From an uncultured delta proteobacterium (GTDB lineage: Bacteria > Desulfobacterota > Syntrophobacteria > Syntrophobacterales > Syntrophobacteraceae): DNA of 64,000 nt. The notes under the pieces are model-generated. The model ran no database searches, had not been told where the DNA came from, and was given only the letters and a program-made list of their open reading frames with translations. A program made the translations under genes and the position numbers. This document shows, in pieces, positions 27,073 through 63,663 of this stretch (positions within the stretch are counted from its first letter, which is position 1; each line of letters opens with the position of its first letter). The DNA lies in the NCBI GenBank assembly GCA_963808625.1, contig CAWEHK010000010.1:1-64000 (forward strand), written 5' to 3'.

Positions 27073-28815
27073 TTACCCGCTGAATCCGAGCCACAGCATG
27101 GCCGCGGCGCCATAGCCGATCAAGACCGACTCGATCAGCGTCTCATAAAGAGGATCTTCTTTCAAACGCCTCTTGCGATACATCCGAAGCTGCCACCCAT
27201 AGGCCGCCGCCACCGGAAACAATGCGTAGGCAAAGCTTGAACTGAGCCCCCCCAGGGGCCCGACGACCGCGGAAAACAACAGCAATGCCAGCATCCAGGT
27301 AAGGAAATGCGTCGTTCGCCTTTCTCCGAGCAGGACCACCAGGGTTTCTCTCCCCACGAGGCGGTCGCCACGCACCGCCATGAGATCCAGCAGCGCCGTG
27401 CGCACCAGGACGACCAGGAACACAACCCAAAAAGCGTACGCCATCTGAACGTAGGAATAGTGCAAAGCCGGTATCAGGGGTGCTATGGCCGTAACACATG
27501 CCCAGGCAACGGGGATGGAAAACGTCTTCGAGGTTGGAATATCCTTGATCTTCAGAGCCGACAGCTTCCGCCACCTGGCAGGCAGGATCCCCGGCACAGC
27601 ATAAATAAGGCCAAGGAGGATCAAAACGACGAGGAGACAAAATGTCATGAAACCAATAGAGACAGCAATCCCGAGAGAGATCGCCAACGCCGCCACACTG
27701 GTTCTGGTAAAGGCTGATCGCCAGCGATGGTAGAAGGCAGCCCGTCCGGGATCATTCAATTGGATCGCATTGCGATCCAGGTAGATATTCAACGAGTGCA
27801 TGGCAAACGCATACGAAGCAGCCATGGCGCTTTCCGCCAGGGAGCCGGGAAGCTTCATCAGGGCGTGCACGGCAACAGAAAGCAGCGCCGCTCCCAGGGC
27901 AACGTAGGCATTTGCATAAGCGAGCATTTCCAGGATTCGCTTGAGTTTGACCCGCAAACCGGAGGATTCGGGTTGGATAGACTCCAAAAACTGGACCACA
28001 TTCCGGATGATCCAGTTGGGGGTTGACGCTCCCGCCGATACTCCCACCGAGGAATAACGGGCCATCTCCTGCTGGTTCAAGTCCGCTTCCGTTTCCACAT
28101 AATAGGTGGGGACTCCGCACTCGCGGCCAATTTCCGCCAGCCGCAGCGTATTGCCGCTGTGGTACCCGCCCACCACTACCATCGCCTCAACCTGGGAACA
28201 CAACTGCCGGACCTCGGCCTGCCGCTGATGGGTCGAGTCGCAGATCGTGTTCTTGACCACGCCATGAGGGTAGCGTTTGAGAAATTGCTCCTGAATTTCG
28301 GCGAAGATCTCTTCGTTCTGAGTGGTTTGAGCAACCAGCAAAACCTTCTCCCAATCCTCGGGAAGGTCGCTTATCTGCTCCGGTCGATTGACGACTCTGC
28401 CCCGGCCTCCCGTGTATCCGAGCAAACCGATGACTTCGGCATGGTCCGCATCCCCGACAATGACCGTGTAAAAGCCGTGGCGGGCATGTCTTTTGATCAC
28501 CGCGTGAACCCTTGCTACGCGTTTACAGGTGGCATCCAGGAGGGTGGCGTTGATGCCGCGCAGCCGCTGCCGCTCATGGGGTGGAATCCCATGAGCACGA
28601 ATCACCACTCTTTTCCCGCTGCAGTTTTCTAAATCGTTTTCCTCGCGGATTCCTTTCTCTTCGAGCATGGCCAGGACCTGCCGGTTGTGAATGAGGGGGC
28701 CGAAGGTACAGATCCTTTCCCCCTCCTGGCGCTTCTGAATGGCCTCAAGAGTAATCTCCAGGGCATCCTTCACCCCTTTGCAGAACCCCGCGGTTTTAGC
28801 CACGAAGACTTTCAT
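27073..28815 (-). CDS. ispH: IspH (LytB) fused to a C-terminal UbiA-like prenyltransferase membrane domain
   Basis: AGFCKGV, LIHN, IRAHG, DATC, QTT, TICDST, SAGASTP; then TM domain with NIYLD..D and DLMAVRGDRLVGRETL. Confidence 0.9.
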   Translation of the reverse strand: MKVFVAKTAGFCKGVKDALEITLEAIQKRQEGERICTFGPLIHNRQVLAMLEEKGIREENDLENCSGKRVVIRAHGIPPHERQRLRGINATLLDATCKRVARVHAVIKRHARHGFYTVIVGDADHAEVIGLLGYTGGRGRVVNRPEQISDLPEDWEKVLLVAQTTQNEEIFAEIQEQFLKRYPHGVVKNTICDSTHQRQAEVRQLCSQVEAMVVVGGYHSGNTLRLAEIGRECGVPTYYVETEADLNQQEMARYSSVGVSAGASTPNWIIRNVVQFLESIQPESSGLRVKLKRILEMLAYANAYVALGAALLSVAVHALMKLPGSLAESAMAASYAFAMHSLNIYLDRNAIQLNDPGRAAFYHRWRSAFTRTSVAALAISLGIAVSIGFMTFCLLVVLILLGLIYAVPGILPARWRKLSALKIKDIPTSKTFSIPVAWACVTAIAPLIPALHYSYVQMAYAFWVVFLVVLVRTALLDLMAVRGDRLVGRETLVVLLGERRTTHFLTWMLALLLFSAVVGPLGGLSSSFAYALFPVAAAYGWQLRMYRKRRLKEDPLYETLIESVLIGYGAAAMLWLGFSG

Positions 28816-31446: not shown

Positions 31447-31517
31447 ATCCCACAATTTCTTCGTATTTCTATTCGGTCATTCGTATTGGAATTGGATATT
31501 CGGTTGCGTTCTCAGTT

Positions 31518-49466: not shown

Positions 49467-49635
49467 TACAGCACCACAGCATAAAGTGACCATAAGCCAA
49501 GAACGTCATTCCCGCATGCTCCCCGCCGAAAGCCTGCGGGGACAAGCTTTGGCGGGAATCCAGAAGAAAAGCCTGGATGCCCGCCTTCGCGGGCATGACG
49601 GGCCGGTATGGGACACCATTTATGTGGAGCTGCTA
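49467..49635. mobile_element. MITE-like element, copy D (inverted relative to C), with a nested hairpin
   Basis: TACAGCACCACAGCATAAAGTGACCA ... GGACACCATTTATGTGGAGCTGCTA; core nearly identical to the reverse complement of copy C. Confidence 0.7.
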
Positions 49636-56459: not shown

Positions 56460-56469
56460 TCAAGTAGAA

Positions 56470-56530
56470 TGGTGCCTGGGACGAGACTCGAACTCGTACA
56501 GAGATGAACTCCGAGGGATTTTAAGTCCCT
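56470..56530 (-). tRNA. 3' part of tRNA-Leu(UAA), serving as the att site of the integrated element (not a complete tRNA)
   Basis: Minus strand AGGGAC-TTAAAA-TCCCT, long variable arm, GTTCGAGTC T-loop, CCA; D-arm and 5' acceptor strand replaced by AT-rich DNA. Confidence 0.9.
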
Positions 56531-56572
56531 CAAAATAATTTTCACTCATTTTCACATATTTTAATAAAACGC

Positions 56573-56600: not shown

Positions 56601-56691
56601 ATCTTCACTGAGTTTAACTCAGTTTGGCCTAAGTTCACCCCAAAGTGTGGGATAAATGTGGGATAGATTTTCAAGGACCAGGAGGCCGACC

Positions 56692-57912
56692 ATGCCAAAA
56701 TGGATCAAAACGAATGTTGAAGGTGTCCGCTATCGGGAACATCCCACCAGGAAACATGGAGTCAGGCGCGACCGCTATTATAGCATCCGCTACAGGCTTA
56801 ATGGTAGGGTCCTGGAACAGGGCGTGGGTTGGGCGTCTAAGGGCGTAACCCTCGAAGATGCTGTCACCAGACGAAAAGAGCTCACAGACAACAAAAAGAA
56901 GGGAAGCGGACCCCTCACGATCAAAGAACAACGAGCTGAGAACGAAGCGAAACGCGAAGCTGAAACCGTCAAGCGCAAACGGGATGTGGAGGCCAACAAG
57001 ACCCTCTCCGAATACTGGAAGGAATCATATTTTCCTGCGGCTCAGCGATCCAAGAAAGCGAGCTCATGGTGTAAGGAAGAAACCCATTTCCGACTGTGGA
57101 TAGGACCCCTCTTCGGAAAACTTCCCCTGCGATCCATCGGGCTCAAGCAATGGGATGAACTCGTCAAGACCCTATCGGCTAAAGGGCTATCCCCGCGCTC
57201 AAAGGAGTACATCTGCGGCACTCTGCGGCGGATTCTGAAGCATGCCTATGACCGGCGCATGGTGGATGATTCCCCACCATCAGGCAAGCGGATCGGTGTC
57301 ACCGGGCCTGGGAAATAACCGGCGCCTTCGCGTGATCTCCCATGAGGAAGAGGCCGCGATTATGGAGAATCTCTCCGTCACCGATATGAACGCATGGCGG
57401 ATAACTCGTTTCTGTTTTCTTACTGGGTGCCGAGCCGGGGAAGCCTTCGCGTTGACCTGGCAGAACGTTGACCGTCAAGCGGTGTGATTGTCTTTGCTGA
57501 AACAAAGAACCGCGATCCCCGGACCATCCCGCTATCAAAACCATTGATGGACCTGTTTGATTCCATGGAGTCAGGAACCCCGGGCCAGCACGTTTTCACC
57601 AAAGCGGACGGATCACCATATCTCGAAGCTCCAAGCGCATTCAGGTCGGCTGTCAAGAATCTCGGGTTCAATCAGGACTACTCGAAACGGGACAAGCTGG
57701 TTTTTCACTCCATCCGGCACACGGTTGCCACCCGGTTAGCTCAGCGTCTTGGACCCCGTGACCTTATGGACGTTATGGGCTGGCGTACCGTTCAGATGGC
57801 AATGCGCTATGTTCACGGCAATGAAGATGCCAAAATGAAGGCACTTGGGATGCTCGGGGCCATACCTGAAACGGGCAAAGTCCTGCCTTTCAAGAATGTG
57901 AGCAACAAATAA
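56692..57912 (+). CDS. Tyrosine integrase (indels near 57312 and 57483)
   Basis: TGCRAGE; ETKN; FHSIRHT; MRYVH; N-terminal arm-binding region. Confidence 0.93.
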
Positions 57913-59182: not shown

Positions 59183-61147
59183 ATGACACATTTGGTTGAA
59201 AATGTCAAGCCTGACCTAATTCCCGAAATCAAATCAAGGCTCTCCTGCCGGACCTTATATCAGCGATTGTGGCCGGACAAGTTTCGGGAAAAGGACAACT
59301 GCCTCTCCTTCTGTCACGATGACCGAACGCCCTCCTGCCAGGTGAGCAAAGAGGCGGCTTACTGCCATACCTGCAAGCGAAAATTCGATGCATTAGACCT
59401 GTATTGCGAAGGGACCGGCCTTTCAAAAGGCGATGCGATCCGCGAATTGGCAAAGGAACTCGGGCTCAACAATGGGAGCGAACCATCAAAATCAAACACC
59501 GATTTCACGGCACAGTGGACTCGTCTCGAGCGGAACTCTCTGGCGCCGGGGGCAATTGCCTACCTCGAACAGGAAAGATCTTTGAAGGGTATTGTTGAGC
59601 CATTAAAGAAGACTCACCTTATCGGGTTTTCACCAAGGACAACGCAATGGCCTGCTGCGGTAGCCTTTCCTTTGACGGATTGGCAGAGAACGACACTGCA
59701 AGGGATTCAGTATATCCCAATCGGTGGAGGCGATAAGAAATTCGCCAAAGGCACTCCGGCAAAGGATGTTTTTTTTCGCATGGACGGCAGCGGCGGCAAT
59801 TACCTCGTGCTCACCGAGGGCATTGTTGATTGCCTGTCCGTTCTCGTGGCCTGCAAGACGATTGACGTTGACGTGGCCGCGATCCTCTCCGCCGGATTCG
59901 TTGATAAGCTGGCCCATGTTCCGGGAAACCCCGTTCTGTTCTTCGATAATGACGACAAGGGCCGCGAAGCCACCGCCAAAGCGATCAAGATCACGAAAGG
60001 GAATTGCCGGGTTGTCGATTGGACTATGGCCCCGGCAGGGATGAAAGATTGCAACGATCTCCTGCGGGACGGCCATGCCGATATCATTGAACGCATGATC
60101 CAGGCTTCCAGGATGCCGGAAGACACGACCGACGACGAGCCACCCATTACAATCATATCAGGCTTGGACCTGATATCCGCCGATCTCGGGCACGACAACC
60201 CTGTCATTGTTAAATTGCTTGGCGAAAAGGAATCACTGCTTCTTACCGGGGCCTCCGGCATCGGAAAAAGCCTTTTCGTCAACAATGTTGCCTTGGTTCT
60301 GGGAGATCCGCCCTTGACTGGATTGTGGGGAATGTTCCCAATTCCCAAAGCCGTCAGCAGCATTTTCGTGCAGTCGGAGAACTCCGCCAAAGCCACCCAG
60401 AGGCGTTTAAAAATGATCATGGAGGGAGCACCCTATCTCCGGGGCGGCATCGAAAGAATATTCTATCCCATGATCAAAGACGATATCCGGCTCATTGGTG
60501 ATCTTCAGGAACACGATTTCCAAGAACGGTTGAAGGAAATCATCGCTGCAACCAGGGCCGGCTTACTGATACTTGATCCGCTCATTTCCTACCACTGGAA
60601 AGATGAAAACAGCAATTCAGATATGCGGAAGACTCTGGACTGTCTGACCCTCATTTCTGAGGATAGCGGAGCTGCCTGTCTTGTTGTTCACCATGTTGGC
60701 AAGAACGGAATGAGTGCTCGCGGTGCGTCCGCTATTGAAGATTGGGCTGCAAACATTCTGGCGTTGGAAGAAGTGACACGACATGACAAGACTTTCATCC
60801 AGGCTACCCACAAAAAATCGCGGAACTTTGACAGAGTTCAGCCGTTCTTTTTGGAGCGGACCCGATATCTGGAACTACTGAAGGCGGACCCGCAAGAGGT
60901 TGCCGGAGTCATTGACGTGCTGGAAGCACTCAAGGATGCAGGTGGAGAGGTGAATAAGAAGTCTGAGTTCATCGAGTTGGTAGTTGGTCGGATGAATTGC
61001 AGTGAGGTTACTGCCAGACGAGCCATCGCTAAGGCTCAAACAAGCGGTCTTGTCGTTGAGATCAAAACCGGAAGGAAGAAGGCGTTCAAATTGGCGAACA
61101 GTGATCATGACCCTGAGAATAGTGATCACCACGATAGTGATCAGTGA
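59183..61147 (+). CDS. Primase-helicase: CHC2 zinc finger, TOPRIM and RepA/AAA_25 helicase
   Basis: C..HDDRTPS...CHTC; TEGIVD; FDNDDKG; KDCND; GASGIGKS; LILDPL; VHHVGK; RGASA. Confidence 0.9.
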   Translation: MTHLVENVKPDLIPEIKSRLSCRTLYQRLWPDKFREKDNCLSFCHDDRTPSCQVSKEAAYCHTCKRKFDALDLYCEGTGLSKGDAIRELAKELGLNNGSEPSKSNTDFTAQWTRLERNSLAPGAIAYLEQERSLKGIVEPLKKTHLIGFSPRTTQWPAAVAFPLTDWQRTTLQGIQYIPIGGGDKKFAKGTPAKDVFFRMDGSGGNYLVLTEGIVDCLSVLVACKTIDVDVAAILSAGFVDKLAHVPGNPVLFFDNDDKGREATAKAIKITKGNCRVVDWTMAPAGMKDCNDLLRDGHADIIERMIQASRMPEDTTDDEPPITIISGLDLISADLGHDNPVIVKLLGEKESLLLTGASGIGKSLFVNNVALVLGDPPLTGLWGMFPIPKAVSSIFVQSENSAKATQRRLKMIMEGAPYLRGGIERIFYPMIKDDIRLIGDLQEHDFQERLKEIIAATRAGLLILDPLISYHWKDENSNSDMRKTLDCLTLISEDSGAACLVVHHVGKNGMSARGASAIEDWAANILALEEVTRHDKTFIQATHKKSRNFDRVQPFFLERTRYLELLKADPQEVAGVIDVLEALKDAGGEVNKKSEFIELVVGRMNCSEVTARRAIAKAQTSGLVVEIKTGRKKAFKLANSDHDPENSDHHDSDQ

Positions 61148-61352
61148 GGGGTGAACACCTTGCAAACCTATACAGCGCAACAGTTTAGCAATTGTGATCA
61201 TTGTGATAGTGATCATTCCTGGGTGATCACCTTTGCAAGTAATTGAATTTATTACATATGTGAATAGTGATCATAGTTGTCTCTATAGAGAGAGAAAGGG
61301 TGATCACAATCCCTTTCTCTCTACTGAGACTATAGCCACAAGAAGGTGATCA
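61101..61352. repeat. Iteron array (9 x GTGATCA) with hairpin; putative replication origin
   Basis: Copies at 61101, 61122, 61137, 61194, 61209, 61223, 61267, 61300, 61346; AT-rich 61240-61266. Confidence 0.8.
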
Positions 61353-61354
61353 GA

Positions 61355-61615
61355 ATGAAAATCATTTTATCGGATCGAGTTAAGGCGGTTGTCGAAGATA
61401 GGCCTTTTCCGGATCTCTCTATTGAGGAACATCCCCTTTTGCTGGGGTATCCAAATCAGGACGGCCAGGTCAAATGCGTTTACTGTCTCTCCTACCGGAA
61501 TCACCGATGCACTCATGGTCACCAGTTGGACGGGATATCCCTGCTTCGGGAGTGCGGCGACTTCGGGTTCAACCGAGATGCGTATCAGGACTTCTATTCC
61601 AACATGAAGGGATGA
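61355..61615 (+). CDS. Small Cys-containing hypothetical protein
   Basis: KCVYC...RC...REC. Confidence 0.55.
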   Translation: MKIILSDRVKAVVEDRPFPDLSIEEHPLLLGYPNQDGQVKCVYCLSYRNHRCTHGHQLDGISLLRECGDFGFNRDAYQDFYSNMKG

Positions 61616-61827
61616 TGACAATGGATGAGGACGAACGCCAAGACGTGGCCGGTGCACTCGGCGACATAGCTAGCCAACTGAAGTATCTGGGCAACGGCAA
61701 TGCCGCAACCCAGATGGGCGCTATCGAAGGTCTCGCCATGCAAGTGAAGGCGGGGCTGGATGGTATTGCGGAAGGGCTTCATGCGATTGCGAAGGCCATT
61801 GAGGATCACGTCATGGAGCTGATGTGA
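61612..61827 (+). CDS. Small helical hypothetical protein
   Basis: ATGA-coupled; LKYLGNGNAATQMGAIEGLA. Confidence 0.6.
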   Translation: MMTMDEDERQDVAGALGDIASQLKYLGNGNAATQMGAIEGLAMQVKAGLDGIAEGLHAIAKAIEDHVMELM

Positions 61828-62711
61828 TGATGACAGCAATTAATGAGTCTAGACCGATAAAACAGCGCCGGACGAAATCGGATATGTCAGAGCTGCGGTC
61901 AATCATTTACTCCGTGGTGGAAGAAGACGAACCGATGACCGTCCGCCAGGTCTTCTATCGCCTCGTCACTATGGGAGCTATAAACAAGACAGAGGCCGAG
62001 TATAAAACAACAGTGGTGCGCCTCCTTGGTGATATGCGGCGGGAAGGCCAGTTGCCTTTCCGATGGATTGCAGACAATACGCGATGGGTGAGACAGGCAA
62101 GAACTCACAATTCTGTGCATGACGCTTTAGAGTGGGGCGCCATGAACTATCGCCGGTCGCTATGGTCTGAGGTGCCGGCCTATGTGGAGATATGGCTTGA
62201 AAAAGAAGCGCTGGCAGGAGTGCTCTTTGACGTAACGCATGAATGGGATGTCCCTCTATATGTGACCCGGGGATACCCGAGCTTGTCTTTCTTGCATAGT
62301 TCCGGTCAAGAGATCCGAGGCCGGCAAGATCCCACATATCTCTACTACTTTGGCGACTTGGACCCGAGCGGTGTGGATATTTCGAGAGTGGTCGAGCGGG
62401 GTATCCGAGAGTTTGCTAATAGAGCAGAGATTTATTTTGAGCGTGTGGCTGTCAACTCAGAACAGGTTGACGAGTGGGACCTACCGACCAGACCGACTAA
62501 GCAAACAGACAGTAGGGCTCATAATTTCCATGGCGAGAGCGTGGAGGTTGACGCGATTCTCCCCGATCGTTTGCGCGATCTGTGCCGTTGGGTGATCGAG
62601 AAGCATTTACCACAGGAAGAACGTGAAAGAGTGCTTGCGATTGAAACAGCCGAGCGAGAGTCATTTCAAGAGATTGCTGGTAGGTATTGGCAACAGCAGC
62701 CGAACGCTTGA
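61824..62711 (+). CDS. Stand-alone Top6A/Spo11-like (Mini-A-like) protein
   Basis: MTVRQVFYRL (wHTH Tyr); WLEKEAL; TRGYPS; FGDLDPSG; FERVAV; EVDA. Confidence 0.78.
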   Translation: MMMTAINESRPIKQRRTKSDMSELRSIIYSVVEEDEPMTVRQVFYRLVTMGAINKTEAEYKTTVVRLLGDMRREGQLPFRWIADNTRWVRQARTHNSVHDALEWGAMNYRRSLWSEVPAYVEIWLEKEALAGVLFDVTHEWDVPLYVTRGYPSLSFLHSSGQEIRGRQDPTYLYYFGDLDPSGVDISRVVERGIREFANRAEIYFERVAVNSEQVDEWDLPTRPTKQTDSRAHNFHGESVEVDAILPDRLRDLCRWVIEKHLPQEERERVLAIETAERESFQEIAGRYWQQQPNA

Positions 62712-62814
62712 AAGGCGGCTGAATGACACACCAAGTCACAAGGTGTGCGGGAAGGCCCACGCAGTAAGGAGTTAGGAGTATGGCAACTGACAGTAAATCA
62801 GGTGGTTGGATAAA

Positions 62815-63267
62815 ATGAAGATACTGATCGACACGCGCGAGCAGCTCCCCTACCAGTTCGAGACCGACGCCGAGCCCGGCAAGCTGGACGTGGGCGACTA
62901 TTCGATTATGGGTGGTGAAAGCCTGGTGGCGGTCGAGCGCAAGACGGTTGACGACTTGGTTCAGTGCCTGACGACCGAACGGGACCGCTTCGAGCGCGAG
63001 CTATACCGGGGGAGGTCCCTGGATTACTTCGCCTTGGTGATCGAGGCGAGCCTGAGTGACCTGGCAAATGGCCGTTACAAGTCCCAGGCGCACCCGAAGG
63101 CGATGATTCAGAGCTTGTTGACGTTCAGCGTCCGATATGGGCTTCCCATCTTCTTTGCGGAGAATAGAGGCTATGGCGCGCGGGTGACTGAAAGCCTGCT
63201 GCTGAAGTATGGCCGGGAGTTGGAGCGGCGTTGCCAGCAGATGCAGAAGCTTAATGAAAAGGACTGA
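62815..63267 (+). CDS. ERCC4-domain nuclease
   Basis: IDTREQ; LDVGDYS; VERKTVDDL. Confidence 0.9.
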   Translation: MKILIDTREQLPYQFETDAEPGKLDVGDYSIMGGESLVAVERKTVDDLVQCLTTERDRFERELYRGRSLDYFALVIEASLSDLANGRYKSQAHPKAMIQSLLTFSVRYGLPIFFAENRGYGARVTESLLLKYGRELERRCQQMQKLNEKD

Positions 63268-63273
63268 AAAGTT

Positions 63274-63663
63274 ATGAATACTCCCAGGGAAAGGCTGACT
63301 CCCAAGCAGCAACGGGCATTGACGGCTCTTTTGACAAGCCCCACCCATGTGGAAGCGGCACGGAAGGCGAATATGAGCGTAACCTCGTTATGGCGCATCC
63401 TTCGGAATGAACGGTTCCAGGAAGTCTACAGGGGTATGCGAAAACAGATCATGGAGTCCGTCATCTGGAAGGCACAGCAATCCTGCGGGGAGGCTCTTGA
63501 TACTCTGATGACGATCAACCGAAATGAGGAAGCCAACGATTCACCGAGGCTTCAAGCAGCAAAAGCACTGCTGGAGGTGGGTTTCAAAGGCTATGAGATC
63601 GAACACATGGAAGAGCGCCTCGCAGTGTTGGAAGCCAGGCAGAATGAACTGGGGGCATTATGA
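63274..63663 (+). CDS. HTH protein, terminase small subunit-like
   Basis: LTPKQQRAL...EAARKANMSVTSLWR...F; RLQAAKALL; C-terminal coiled coil. Confidence 0.6.
   Translation: MNTPRERLTPKQQRALTALLTSPTHVEAARKANMSVTSLWRILRNERFQEVYRGMRKQIMESVIWKAQQSCGEALDTLMTINRNEEANDSPRLQAAKALLEVGFKGYEIEHMEERLAVLEARQNELGAL

Follow-up and report, generated by a model that had tools for sequence, protein, structure and literature searches.

The 295-amino-acid (aa) protein encoded at positions 61824-62711 of the DNA studied here almost certainly belongs to Mini-A, a family of stand-alone homologues of the A subunit of topoisomerase VI (Top6A). The DNA is a stretch of 64,000 nucleotides from an uncultured member of the Syntrophobacteraceae, and we call the whole of it the window (positions 1-64000 of the 82,663-base contig CAWEHK010000010.1, here C10). 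Judged by its sequence, the protein has kept the residues with which Top6A and Spo11 break DNA, and it is carried by a small island integrated into a tRNA gene. What the gene does for this island is the main question of this text, and our findings point towards replication or recombination of the element.

Membership in Mini-A and the predicted catalytic residues

The gene and the domains of its product are as follows.

61824-62711, + strand: Mini-A, 295 aa, with a winged-helix (5Y-CAP) domain at about residues 17-108 (R41/Y45) and a TOPRIM domain at about residues 107-261

The reading frame opens with GTG at 61824, followed by ATG codons at 61827 and 61830, and GGAG stands at 61815-61818.

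The Mini-A subfamily was described by Takahashi, Da Cunha, Krupovic, Mayer, Forterre and Gadelle (NAR Genom Bioinform 2019/2020, PMC7671362). In the accessible text of that paper, the name Mini-A is given to homologues of the topoisomerase VI A subunit that stand alone, measure about 300 residues and come from bacterial and archaeal viruses and proviruses. Their hallmarks are given there as RxxY/FY, E, DxDxxG and a C-terminal "T2BI" box, xWELDAL; they have neither the N-terminal B-binding segment nor a B subunit nearby. A figure legend of the same paper counts Pseudomonas phage NP1 among the examples. Our protein is 39% identical to NP1 protein AND74899.1 over 223 aa (BLASTP, E 4e-41), and every motif of the two proteins is in register: TVRQVFY with TIRQLYY, LEKEALAGVL with VEKEALAGVL, GDLDPSG with GDHDPSG, and ESVEVDAI with ESWELDAL. 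Hence, we assign the protein to Mini-A. In the PHROG library it is matched by phrog_6247, "DNA topoisomerase", at E 1.2e-58 over residues 15-288.

The query resembles the published subfamily in its length of about 300 aa, its RxxF/Y-Y winged helix, its E/DxDxxG TOPRIM domain, its T2BI box and its place on a mobile element. It also resembles it in having no B subunit and no N-terminal B-binding segment; the modelled winged helix begins at about residue 17 and aligns only to chain residues 71-142 of the Top6A structure 1d3y. It differs in two respects. Its T2BI box reads SVEVDAI, as opposed to the published xWELDAL: E241, D243 and A244 are kept, whereas W, L and L of the NP1 box SWELDAL are replaced by V, V and I. 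V occupies the W position in 240 of the 266 sequences of the query's clade (MAFFT alignment), and at the level of sequence SVEVDAI is a clade-wide variant of the published signature. The second difference is the carrier, which is not a complete phage but a tRNA-integrated island of 11-13 kb that has no capsid or tail genes.

Relatives of the protein are numerous. A word-indexed protein search returned 6,571 of them at E<=0.001 among 7,667 candidates, mostly about 60% identical, and a 32-sequence profile matched 11,875 representatives of 50%-identity clusters at E<=0.001, 2,739 of which reached E<=1e-30. With tblastn, relatives turned up in 78 phage records, including Pseudomonas phages NP1, PaMx25 and JG054, Xylella phage Sano and Listeria phage LWP01, and several are annotated "DNA topoisomerase". 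Labels of at least 10 phyla are intermixed in a quick tree of 71 sequences, where the two copies of this genome (the second is described below) form their own long branch. The gene is an ordinary new member of an already described and very widespread family.

The predicted catalytic residues can be read directly from the translation: T39-V-R41-Q-V-F44-Y45 in the winged helix, then E126-K127, D178-L-D180-P-S-G183 and E241-V-D243-A244. The TOPRIM domain bears E126, D178xD180xxG183 and the C-terminal box S239-VEVDAI-245. To count conservation we aligned the query and all 270 retrieved homologues (271 sequences) with MAFFT; smaller alignments agree with the result. R41 is kept in 265 of 265 sequences and Y45 in 264 of 266, with F or Y at position 44 in 264 of 266. 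The acidic residues of the TOPRIM domain are kept in 270/271 (E126), 271/271 (D178) and 270/271 (D180) sequences, and G183 in 269/271. In the C-terminal box E241 is kept in 247 of 266 sequences and D243 in 231 of 264, with E in a further 22. As aligned, the motif residues are invariant or nearly so, far above chance, and the alignment shows strong purifying selection on what appears to be a Top6A-type catalytic set.

The predicted structure is most like Top6A. The AlphaFold2 model has an N-terminal winged helix and a C-terminal TOPRIM domain (mean predicted local distance difference test, pLDDT, 83.1; predicted template modelling score, pTM, 0.68). When the full model was compared with the Protein Data Bank (PDB) by Foldseek, Top6A came first (9o8p_A, E 3.7e-4; 1d3y_A, E 7.7e-4) and the MksG nuclease next (8b7f_A, E 8.2e-4). 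In domain-wise comparisons with VIA-align the TOPRIM domain (about residues 107-260) matches 1d3y_A with Z 9.8 (root-mean-square deviation, rmsd, 4.5; 142 residues aligned). The N-terminal domain, modelled alone at pLDDT 87.5, matches 1d3y_B with Z 7.9 (rmsd 2.2; 65 residues aligned) over chain residues 71-142, a segment that spans R99/Y103. A 57-sequence profile sets the DxD of the family on DgDpyG of 1d3y_A and R41/Y45 on the ReayY motif (R99/Y103), the latter stretch alone scoring -1.4 bits, which is sub-threshold. From alignment and model together, a position of Tyr45 equivalent to the Top6A active site is supported, not proven.

Compared with Top6A and Spo11 (M. jannaschii Top6A, PDB 1D3Y; M. 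mazei Top6, PDB 9O8P), the query is alike in that Top6A is its best structural match overall and a tied-best one for the N-terminal domain, and in that its Arg/Tyr pair and its Mg2+-binding E/DxD residues align. In contrast to Top6A, it is about 100 residues shorter, does not have the N-terminal part that binds Top6B, misses the Pfam and NCBIfam thresholds, and comes from a genome in which no Top6B was found. Because of its length, the missing B-binding part and the negative genome search for Top6B, ATP-driven strand passage of the known type does not seem possible for this protein.

The search for an ATPase partner covered the island, the rest of the contig and the genome. Pfam recognises no GHKL/Top6B or SMC-like domain among the island's 17 open reading frames (ORFs). 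Six-frame searches of the genome, whose 84.6% completeness limits what absences can mean, found neither the Top6B transducer PF09239 nor the canonical Top6A N-domain PF04406 (TP6A_N), and both controls were positive in 4 archaea. PF09664 (JetD C-terminus) was not found genome-wide either, and its control was positive nowhere. The 18.6 kb of contig beyond the window contain no large ATPase or SMC-like JetABC genes. We rejected a Top6B or JetABC partner just outside the window, where the island ends at 69912 and an ABC-transporter region follows.

The original prediction for this gene was made from the letters of the window. It had described an orphan Spo11/Top6A-like protein with the motif TVRQVFY and intact TOPRIM residues EK, DxDxxG and ExDA, had compared it to A-subunit-only type IIB homologues of the Mini-A kind in mobile elements, and had seen no GHKL subunit. 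All the motifs are present in the translation and conserved across the alignment, including the tyrosine, and Top6A does rank first in Foldseek with MksG next. The likeness to Mini-A on a mobile element is supported. The missing GHKL subunit is borne out by the island's ORFs and by the genome-wide PF09239 search, and there is no Top6B or JetABC partner in the contig past the window. The word "orphan" is wrong, given the 6,571 word-indexed matches and the 11,875 cluster representatives.

Neighbours of Mini-A in related elements

To see where Mini-A genes lie we used 160 related loci. Eighty come from species-representative genomes and are the best 80 of 206 confirmed loci (217 pattern matches); 80 further loci come from metagenomes and are the best 80 of 594 confirmed (599 matches). 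All 160 are 49-61% identical to the query, a range that leaves relatives of 74-80% identity outside the comparison. The Mini-A ORF was recovered in 69 of the genome loci (11 loci were dropped), which gave 112 immediate neighbours of at least 80 aa.

A replication protein recognisable by Pfam adjoins Mini-A in 21 of the 69 loci (Prim-Pol, AAA_25, DnaB, D5_N, VapE-like, DUF5906 or G2P). Other immediate neighbours are HTH_17 excisionase-like proteins (four loci), HTH_36 proteins (two loci), integrases (two loci) and a DUF3854 protein (one locus). Members of integrase or serine-recombinase clusters, whose identity was taken from one representative each, lie within 8 kb of Mini-A in 38 of the 69 loci.

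For the genes further downstream we scanned same-strand ORFs of 250-700 aa in 39 loci against PHROG, sending 86 of 260 eligible ORFs. Head, packaging or tail matches lie within 8 kb downstream in 13 of the 39 sampled loci. Hence, many carriers are real temperate phages, and Mini-A may sit at the boundary between replication and packaging genes. Two loci illustrate such a boundary. In L081 (2157-3863) about 450 bp separate Mini-A from a large terminase gene further downstream; in L046 (9643-11508) a major head/protease fusion gene follows after about 840 bp. Such arrangements show that Mini-A can close the early region, right before the late genes. Overall, Mini-A tends to lie in the early or replication region, where it is sometimes the last gene before the packaging module.

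In phage NP1 (KX129925.1, L166 3845-6511) Mini-A stands between a DNA ligase gene upstream and a gene for a RecA-like ATPase downstream. The surrounding block contains primase/helicase, dUTPase, RNase H-like, ThyX, RecB-like exonuclease and helicase genes. The NP1 record annotates its Mini-A as 'hypothetical protein', and a separate 63-aa coding sequence further on as 'putative DNA topoisomerase'.

Two tRNA islands and the ERCC4 gene

The carrier of the query is a 13.4-kb island, C10:56464-69912, which lies between 67-bp perfect direct repeats (67/67 identical in a blastn self-comparison). Its order up to our gene is primase-helicase, iterons, two small ORFs, Mini-A. The features are listed here; those prefixed C10 reach beyond the window.

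56464-56530, no strand: attL, 67-bp direct repeat that duplicates the 3' part of tRNA-Leu(TAA)
56656-57912, + strand: tyrosine integrase in three frames (56656-57318, 57242-57487 and 57484-57912)
59183-61147, + strand: primase-helicase with DnaG-type zinc ribbon, Toprim and AAA_25 helicase
61101-61352, no strand: GTGATCA iteron cluster, 9 copies on the + strand, repeat families D1, D2 and D6
61346-61615, + strand: small Cys-rich ORF, 89 aa, from the ORF list; no Pfam or PHROG match
61474-61827, + strand: small ORF of up to 117 aa, its stop codon overlapping the start of Mini-A; DUF7273 at E 0.0056, below cut-off
62806-63267, + strand: ERCC4-type nuclease, 153 aa (Pfam PF02732, E 3.6e-14, 53.3 bits against a cut-off of 24)
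63274-63663, + strand: terminase-small-subunit-like protein, 129 aa (phrog_2538, E 1.5e-6; phrog_51, E 3.6e-3; both weak)
C10:69846-69912, outside the window: attR, within the intact tRNA-Leu(TAA)
C10:69852-69939, - strand: intact tRNA-Leu(TAA), found by ARAGORN

At the attL end a weak tRNA match (56481-56543, - strand) stays below the Rfam gathering score. The outer pieces of the integrase match Pfam Phage_int_SAM_3 (E 3e-4) and Phage_integrase (E 1e-13), and the middle piece holds the 'LTGCRAGE' box-I region and aligns to box I of the integrase of a second island on contig C2 (E 7e-7). The split integrase is either a decayed pseudogene, in which case the island is immobilised, or the product of frameshift errors in the assembly. 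Two unassigned ORFs separate it from the primase-helicase, which matches Pfam AAA_25 (1.4e-20), Toprim_2 (6.8e-8) and Zn_ribbon_DnaG (1.1e-4) as well as phrog_239, DNA primase/helicase (1.2e-33). More unassigned ORFs follow the terminase-small-subunit-like ORF, which has no Pfam match and is not common to the C2 island. There are no capsid, portal, large-terminase or tail matches in the C10 island, and promoter and terminator scans gave site numbers not above those of shuffles.

The iteron cluster is the likely replication origin of the island. Of the 28 GTGATCA matches in the window, twelve lie within 61101-61352; shuffled sequences give 8.96 +/- 3.28 matches for the entire window. Several of the iterons are extended to the palindrome GTGATCAC.

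The same genome carries a second Mini-A and ERCC4 pair on contig C2, at 94-95% nucleotide identity to the C10 module, and the two Mini-A proteins are 98% identical. Homology begins at 61838, and the 117-aa ORF is absent from the C2 island. A small Cys-rich ORF precedes Mini-A there too. The C2 island is about 11.3 kb long and is flanked by repeats of the 3' part of another tRNA gene.

C2:17430-17478, 28743-28787 and 31454-31502: direct repeats of the 3' part of tRNA-Thr(CGT), three copies

The three copies suggest two tandem elements, the 11.3-kb Mini-A island and a 2.7-kb remnant. The remnant holds an HTH_3/Peptidase_M78 (ImmA/IrrE-like) regulator. The C2 island has another integrase and, directly before Mini-A, another primase (924 aa, phrog_16593/29234). 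It has no iteron cluster: a single TGATCAC occurs in 13 kb. Since the cluster is absent from an island with a 98%-identical Mini-A, Mini-A is not tied to the iteron origin. We therefore rejected the GTGATCA iterons as the target of Mini-A: the C2 island combines nearly the same Mini-A with a different primase and no cluster. The origin, plausible as such, belongs to the C10 primase-helicase.

Neither island contains structural genes. Because they are similar in size, differ in their integration and replication genes and both have no structural genes, we infer that they more probably represent a family of satellite-like integrative elements than two independently decayed prophages. They resemble phage satellites or phage-inducible chromosomal islands in their size (11-13 kb), in their integration into tRNA genes with direct repeats, and in having the integrase at one end. 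The series of primase-helicase then iterons, the terminase-small-subunit-like ORF and the absence of capsid and tail genes are also familiar from such satellites. In contrast to known satellites, no helper phage or induction is known here, the C10 integrase is split and the terminase-small-subunit call is weak, so that a decayed prophage is a less likely but possible alternative. Elsewhere on C10 (C10:71480-71736, and 49552-49602 in the window) there is a dispersed repeat of about 65 bases, found at 76-92% identity on more than 40 contigs and often in both orientations. It resembles intergenic repeats of the repetitive extragenic palindromic (REP) or miniature inverted-repeat transposable element (MITE) type.

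Directly downstream of Mini-A, after a gap of 94 bp and on the same strand, lies the ERCC4 nuclease gene. Its product also matches phrog_3490 (E 5e-26) and, partially, NCBIfam Hef/Xpf, and GDY...ERKTVDD in its translation is an intact GDxn-ERKxxxD motif. The original prediction had placed our gene just downstream of the origin and upstream of this nuclease, and had proposed a break-and-process pair reminiscent of Spo11 with XPF/Mus81. The position holds: Mini-A starts about 470 bp downstream of the plausible origin and adjoins the nuclease gene. The proposed pair is unsupported from either side. No ERCC4 occurs in any of the 160 related Mini-A loci (1.54 Mb, 7,223 ORFs of at least 70 aa; phmmer with both ERCC4 copies, E<=10), the regular expression GDx...ERKxxxD has no match in them, and Pfam finds ERCC4 in 0 of the 112 immediate neighbours. 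Seen from the nuclease, 28 of the 96 genomes examined in the host's order have ERCC4 homologues, and Mini-A stands beside 0 of 19 other ERCC4 loci in that order (+/-1.5 kb), the closest, at 73% identity, included. Mini-A itself was found in 5 of the 96 genomes, the four others at <=33% identity.

As co-occurrence is negative in both directions, the pairing is local to the two islands of this genome, the only place where it was seen, and two islands of one genome are not independent observations. A slightly wider linkage within the lineage, among the relatives of 74-80% identity, may exist. Homologues of the 89-aa Cys-rich ORF stand directly upstream of ERCC4 in L168 (~1948-2196, - strand) and L176 (~1341-1472). 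This order hints that the small ORF and ERCC4 stood together first, and that Mini-A and the 117-aa ORF were inserted between them later. The 89-aa ORF may go with the ERCC4 nuclease, as a small conserved partner, and not with Mini-A. Most likely, the nuclease is an independent cargo or repair gene of the islands and not a dedicated processing partner.

Possible roles of Mini-A

Which reaction could a Mini-A protein catalyse without an ATPase? We lean, by a small degree, towards a homodimer that is a Mini-A and that uses Mg2+ for covalent DNA cleavage in the replication or recombination of its island. The role taken alone, covalent cleavage linked to replication or recombination, we put at somewhat below an even chance. 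By analogy with type IIB enzymes, Mini-A would dimerise through its TOPRIM domains. Each Tyr45, placed by R41, would attack one strand with the help of the partner's Mg2+ site (E126, D178 and D180). The outcome would be a staggered double-strand break with 5'-phosphotyrosyl links, which could be resealed or processed. The substrate would be the replicating DNA of the element itself and, with no ATPase gate, there would be no ATP-driven strand passage. Our templates for this mechanism are the Top6A dimer architecture and the type IIB cleavage chemistry, as given in the accessible text of PMC13040014 and PMC10123090, respectively.

Several observations weigh against this picture, some of them against the kinship with Top6A on which it builds. 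Whole-chain TM-scores (Foldseek) are low, 0.33-0.36 to Top6A and 0.28-0.36 overall, because the orientation of the domains differs. Within the TOPRIM domain MksG (8b7f_A, Z 9.5) and JetD (7til_B, Z 9.1) are nearly as close as Top6A. The N-terminal domain is a generic winged helix, matching a Zur regulator with Z 8.3 against Z 7.9 for Top6A, and has no Foldseek match at E<=0.001 when searched alone. Against PDB sequences phmmer with the single protein and the 32-sequence profile found nothing, and the 57-sequence profile found 1d3y_A as its sole match at E 0.094, with the sub-threshold R41/Y45 stretch mentioned above. Mini-A misses the Pfam TP6A_N threshold (13.3 bits against a cut-off of 26) and that of NCBIfam Top6A, NF003335 (21.6 bits against 424, TOPRIM region only). 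In 48 of the 69 loci the immediate neighbours include no replication protein that Pfam recognises, 13 of the 39 sampled loci have head, packaging or tail genes further downstream, and the C2 island does without the iteron cluster. We also found no experiment on any Mini-A in the main text of openly accessible papers; as far as these texts go, that literature consists of the 2019 description and of reviews and phylogenetic papers that cite it.

If Mini-A does not serve replication or recombination, it could be a helper in DNA maturation or packaging that cuts or untangles replicated concatemers just before the terminase acts. Some terminases are assisted by accessory HNH nucleases. The C10 island offers a fitting arrangement, with Mini-A and ERCC4 directly upstream of the terminase-small-subunit-like ORF (phrog_2538, E 1.5e-6), and the 13 loci with same-strand structural or packaging genes within 8 kb downstream, L081 and L046 being the closest named cases, fit as well. 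However, the small-subunit assignment is weak, and the C2 island has Mini-A but not this ORF. No class of immediate neighbour is commoner than replication proteins, whereas none of the 112 neighbours is a terminase, and genes of replication and recombination surround Mini-A in NP1. A position at the module boundary is to be expected of any gene that comes last in the early region. We therefore consider a packaging role unlikely. Slightly less probable is a bolder version of the replication role, in which Mini-A is a self-sufficient, ATP-independent, Spo11-like double-strand breaker. Such an enzyme would start or resolve the replication of small tRNA-integrated satellites and temperate phages by recombination and hold the 5' ends covalently, and in this lineage ERCC4 would clear or process them.

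The closeness of the TOPRIM domain to MksG and JetD raises the question of whether Mini-A is a conflict nuclease, a JetD/MksG-like TOPRIM endonuclease with which the island attacks the chromosome of its host, a helper phage or rival elements. JetD and MksG of the Wadjet and MksBEFG systems (PDB 7TIL and 8B7F) share with the query a Top6A-type TOPRIM domain and an N-terminal DNA-binding domain. There are also weak matches to PADLOC JetD (E 4e-4, residues 153-193) and Pfam DUF2399 (E 0.074), and isolated MksG cleaves DNA without ATP in vitro, according to the accessible text of PMC10123090. The same text reports no tyrosine candidate in the MksG domain equivalent to 5Y-CAP, whereas R41 and Y45 are nearly invariant in our alignment (265/265 and 264/266). 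The matches cover the TOPRIM core only, and neither the island nor the 18.6 kb past the window contains JetABC or MksBEF genes. Where it occurs in phages and islands, the gene belongs to replication modules and not to defence islands. All this makes a defence or conflict function a poor prospect. Poorer by a clear distance are the last two explanations. The dedicated break-and-process pair with ERCC4, in the manner of Spo11 followed by a structure-specific nuclease, can draw on the adjacency of the genes, the intact ERCC4 motif and the fact that two islands which differ in primase, integrase and tRNA target carry the module at 94% nucleotide identity. It is very unlikely nevertheless, as ERCC4 is absent from all 160 related Mini-A loci, Mini-A is absent from all 19 other ERCC4 loci, ERCC4 is common and Mini-A rare in the host's order, L168 and L176 suggest a late entry of Mini-A, and the two islands share one genome. 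Equally improbable is a non-catalytic DNA-binding or regulatory protein that has retained the Top6A fold. The winged helix is as close to those of transcription factors as to Top6A, and no Mini-A activity was found in the literature searched, but a protein that does not catalyse would hardly keep the putative catalytic residues almost completely in 271 sequences from at least 10 phyla.

As far as their sequences tell, Mini-A proteins keep the full set of DNA-breaking residues of topoisomerase VI and Spo11 without an ATPase partner. Our analysis adds three points to what was known of them: Mini-A rides not only complete phages but also small tRNA islands without structural genes, its commonest immediate neighbour is the primase or helicase of the element itself, and the attractive ERCC4 partner is a local accident. 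Together the findings point to a role in the replication or recombination of the element rather than to a two-gene break-and-process system or to defence. If Mini-A should after all prove to be a Spo11-like breaker that acts alone, it would give us a present-day model for the A-only ancestor of both topoisomerase VI and Spo11.

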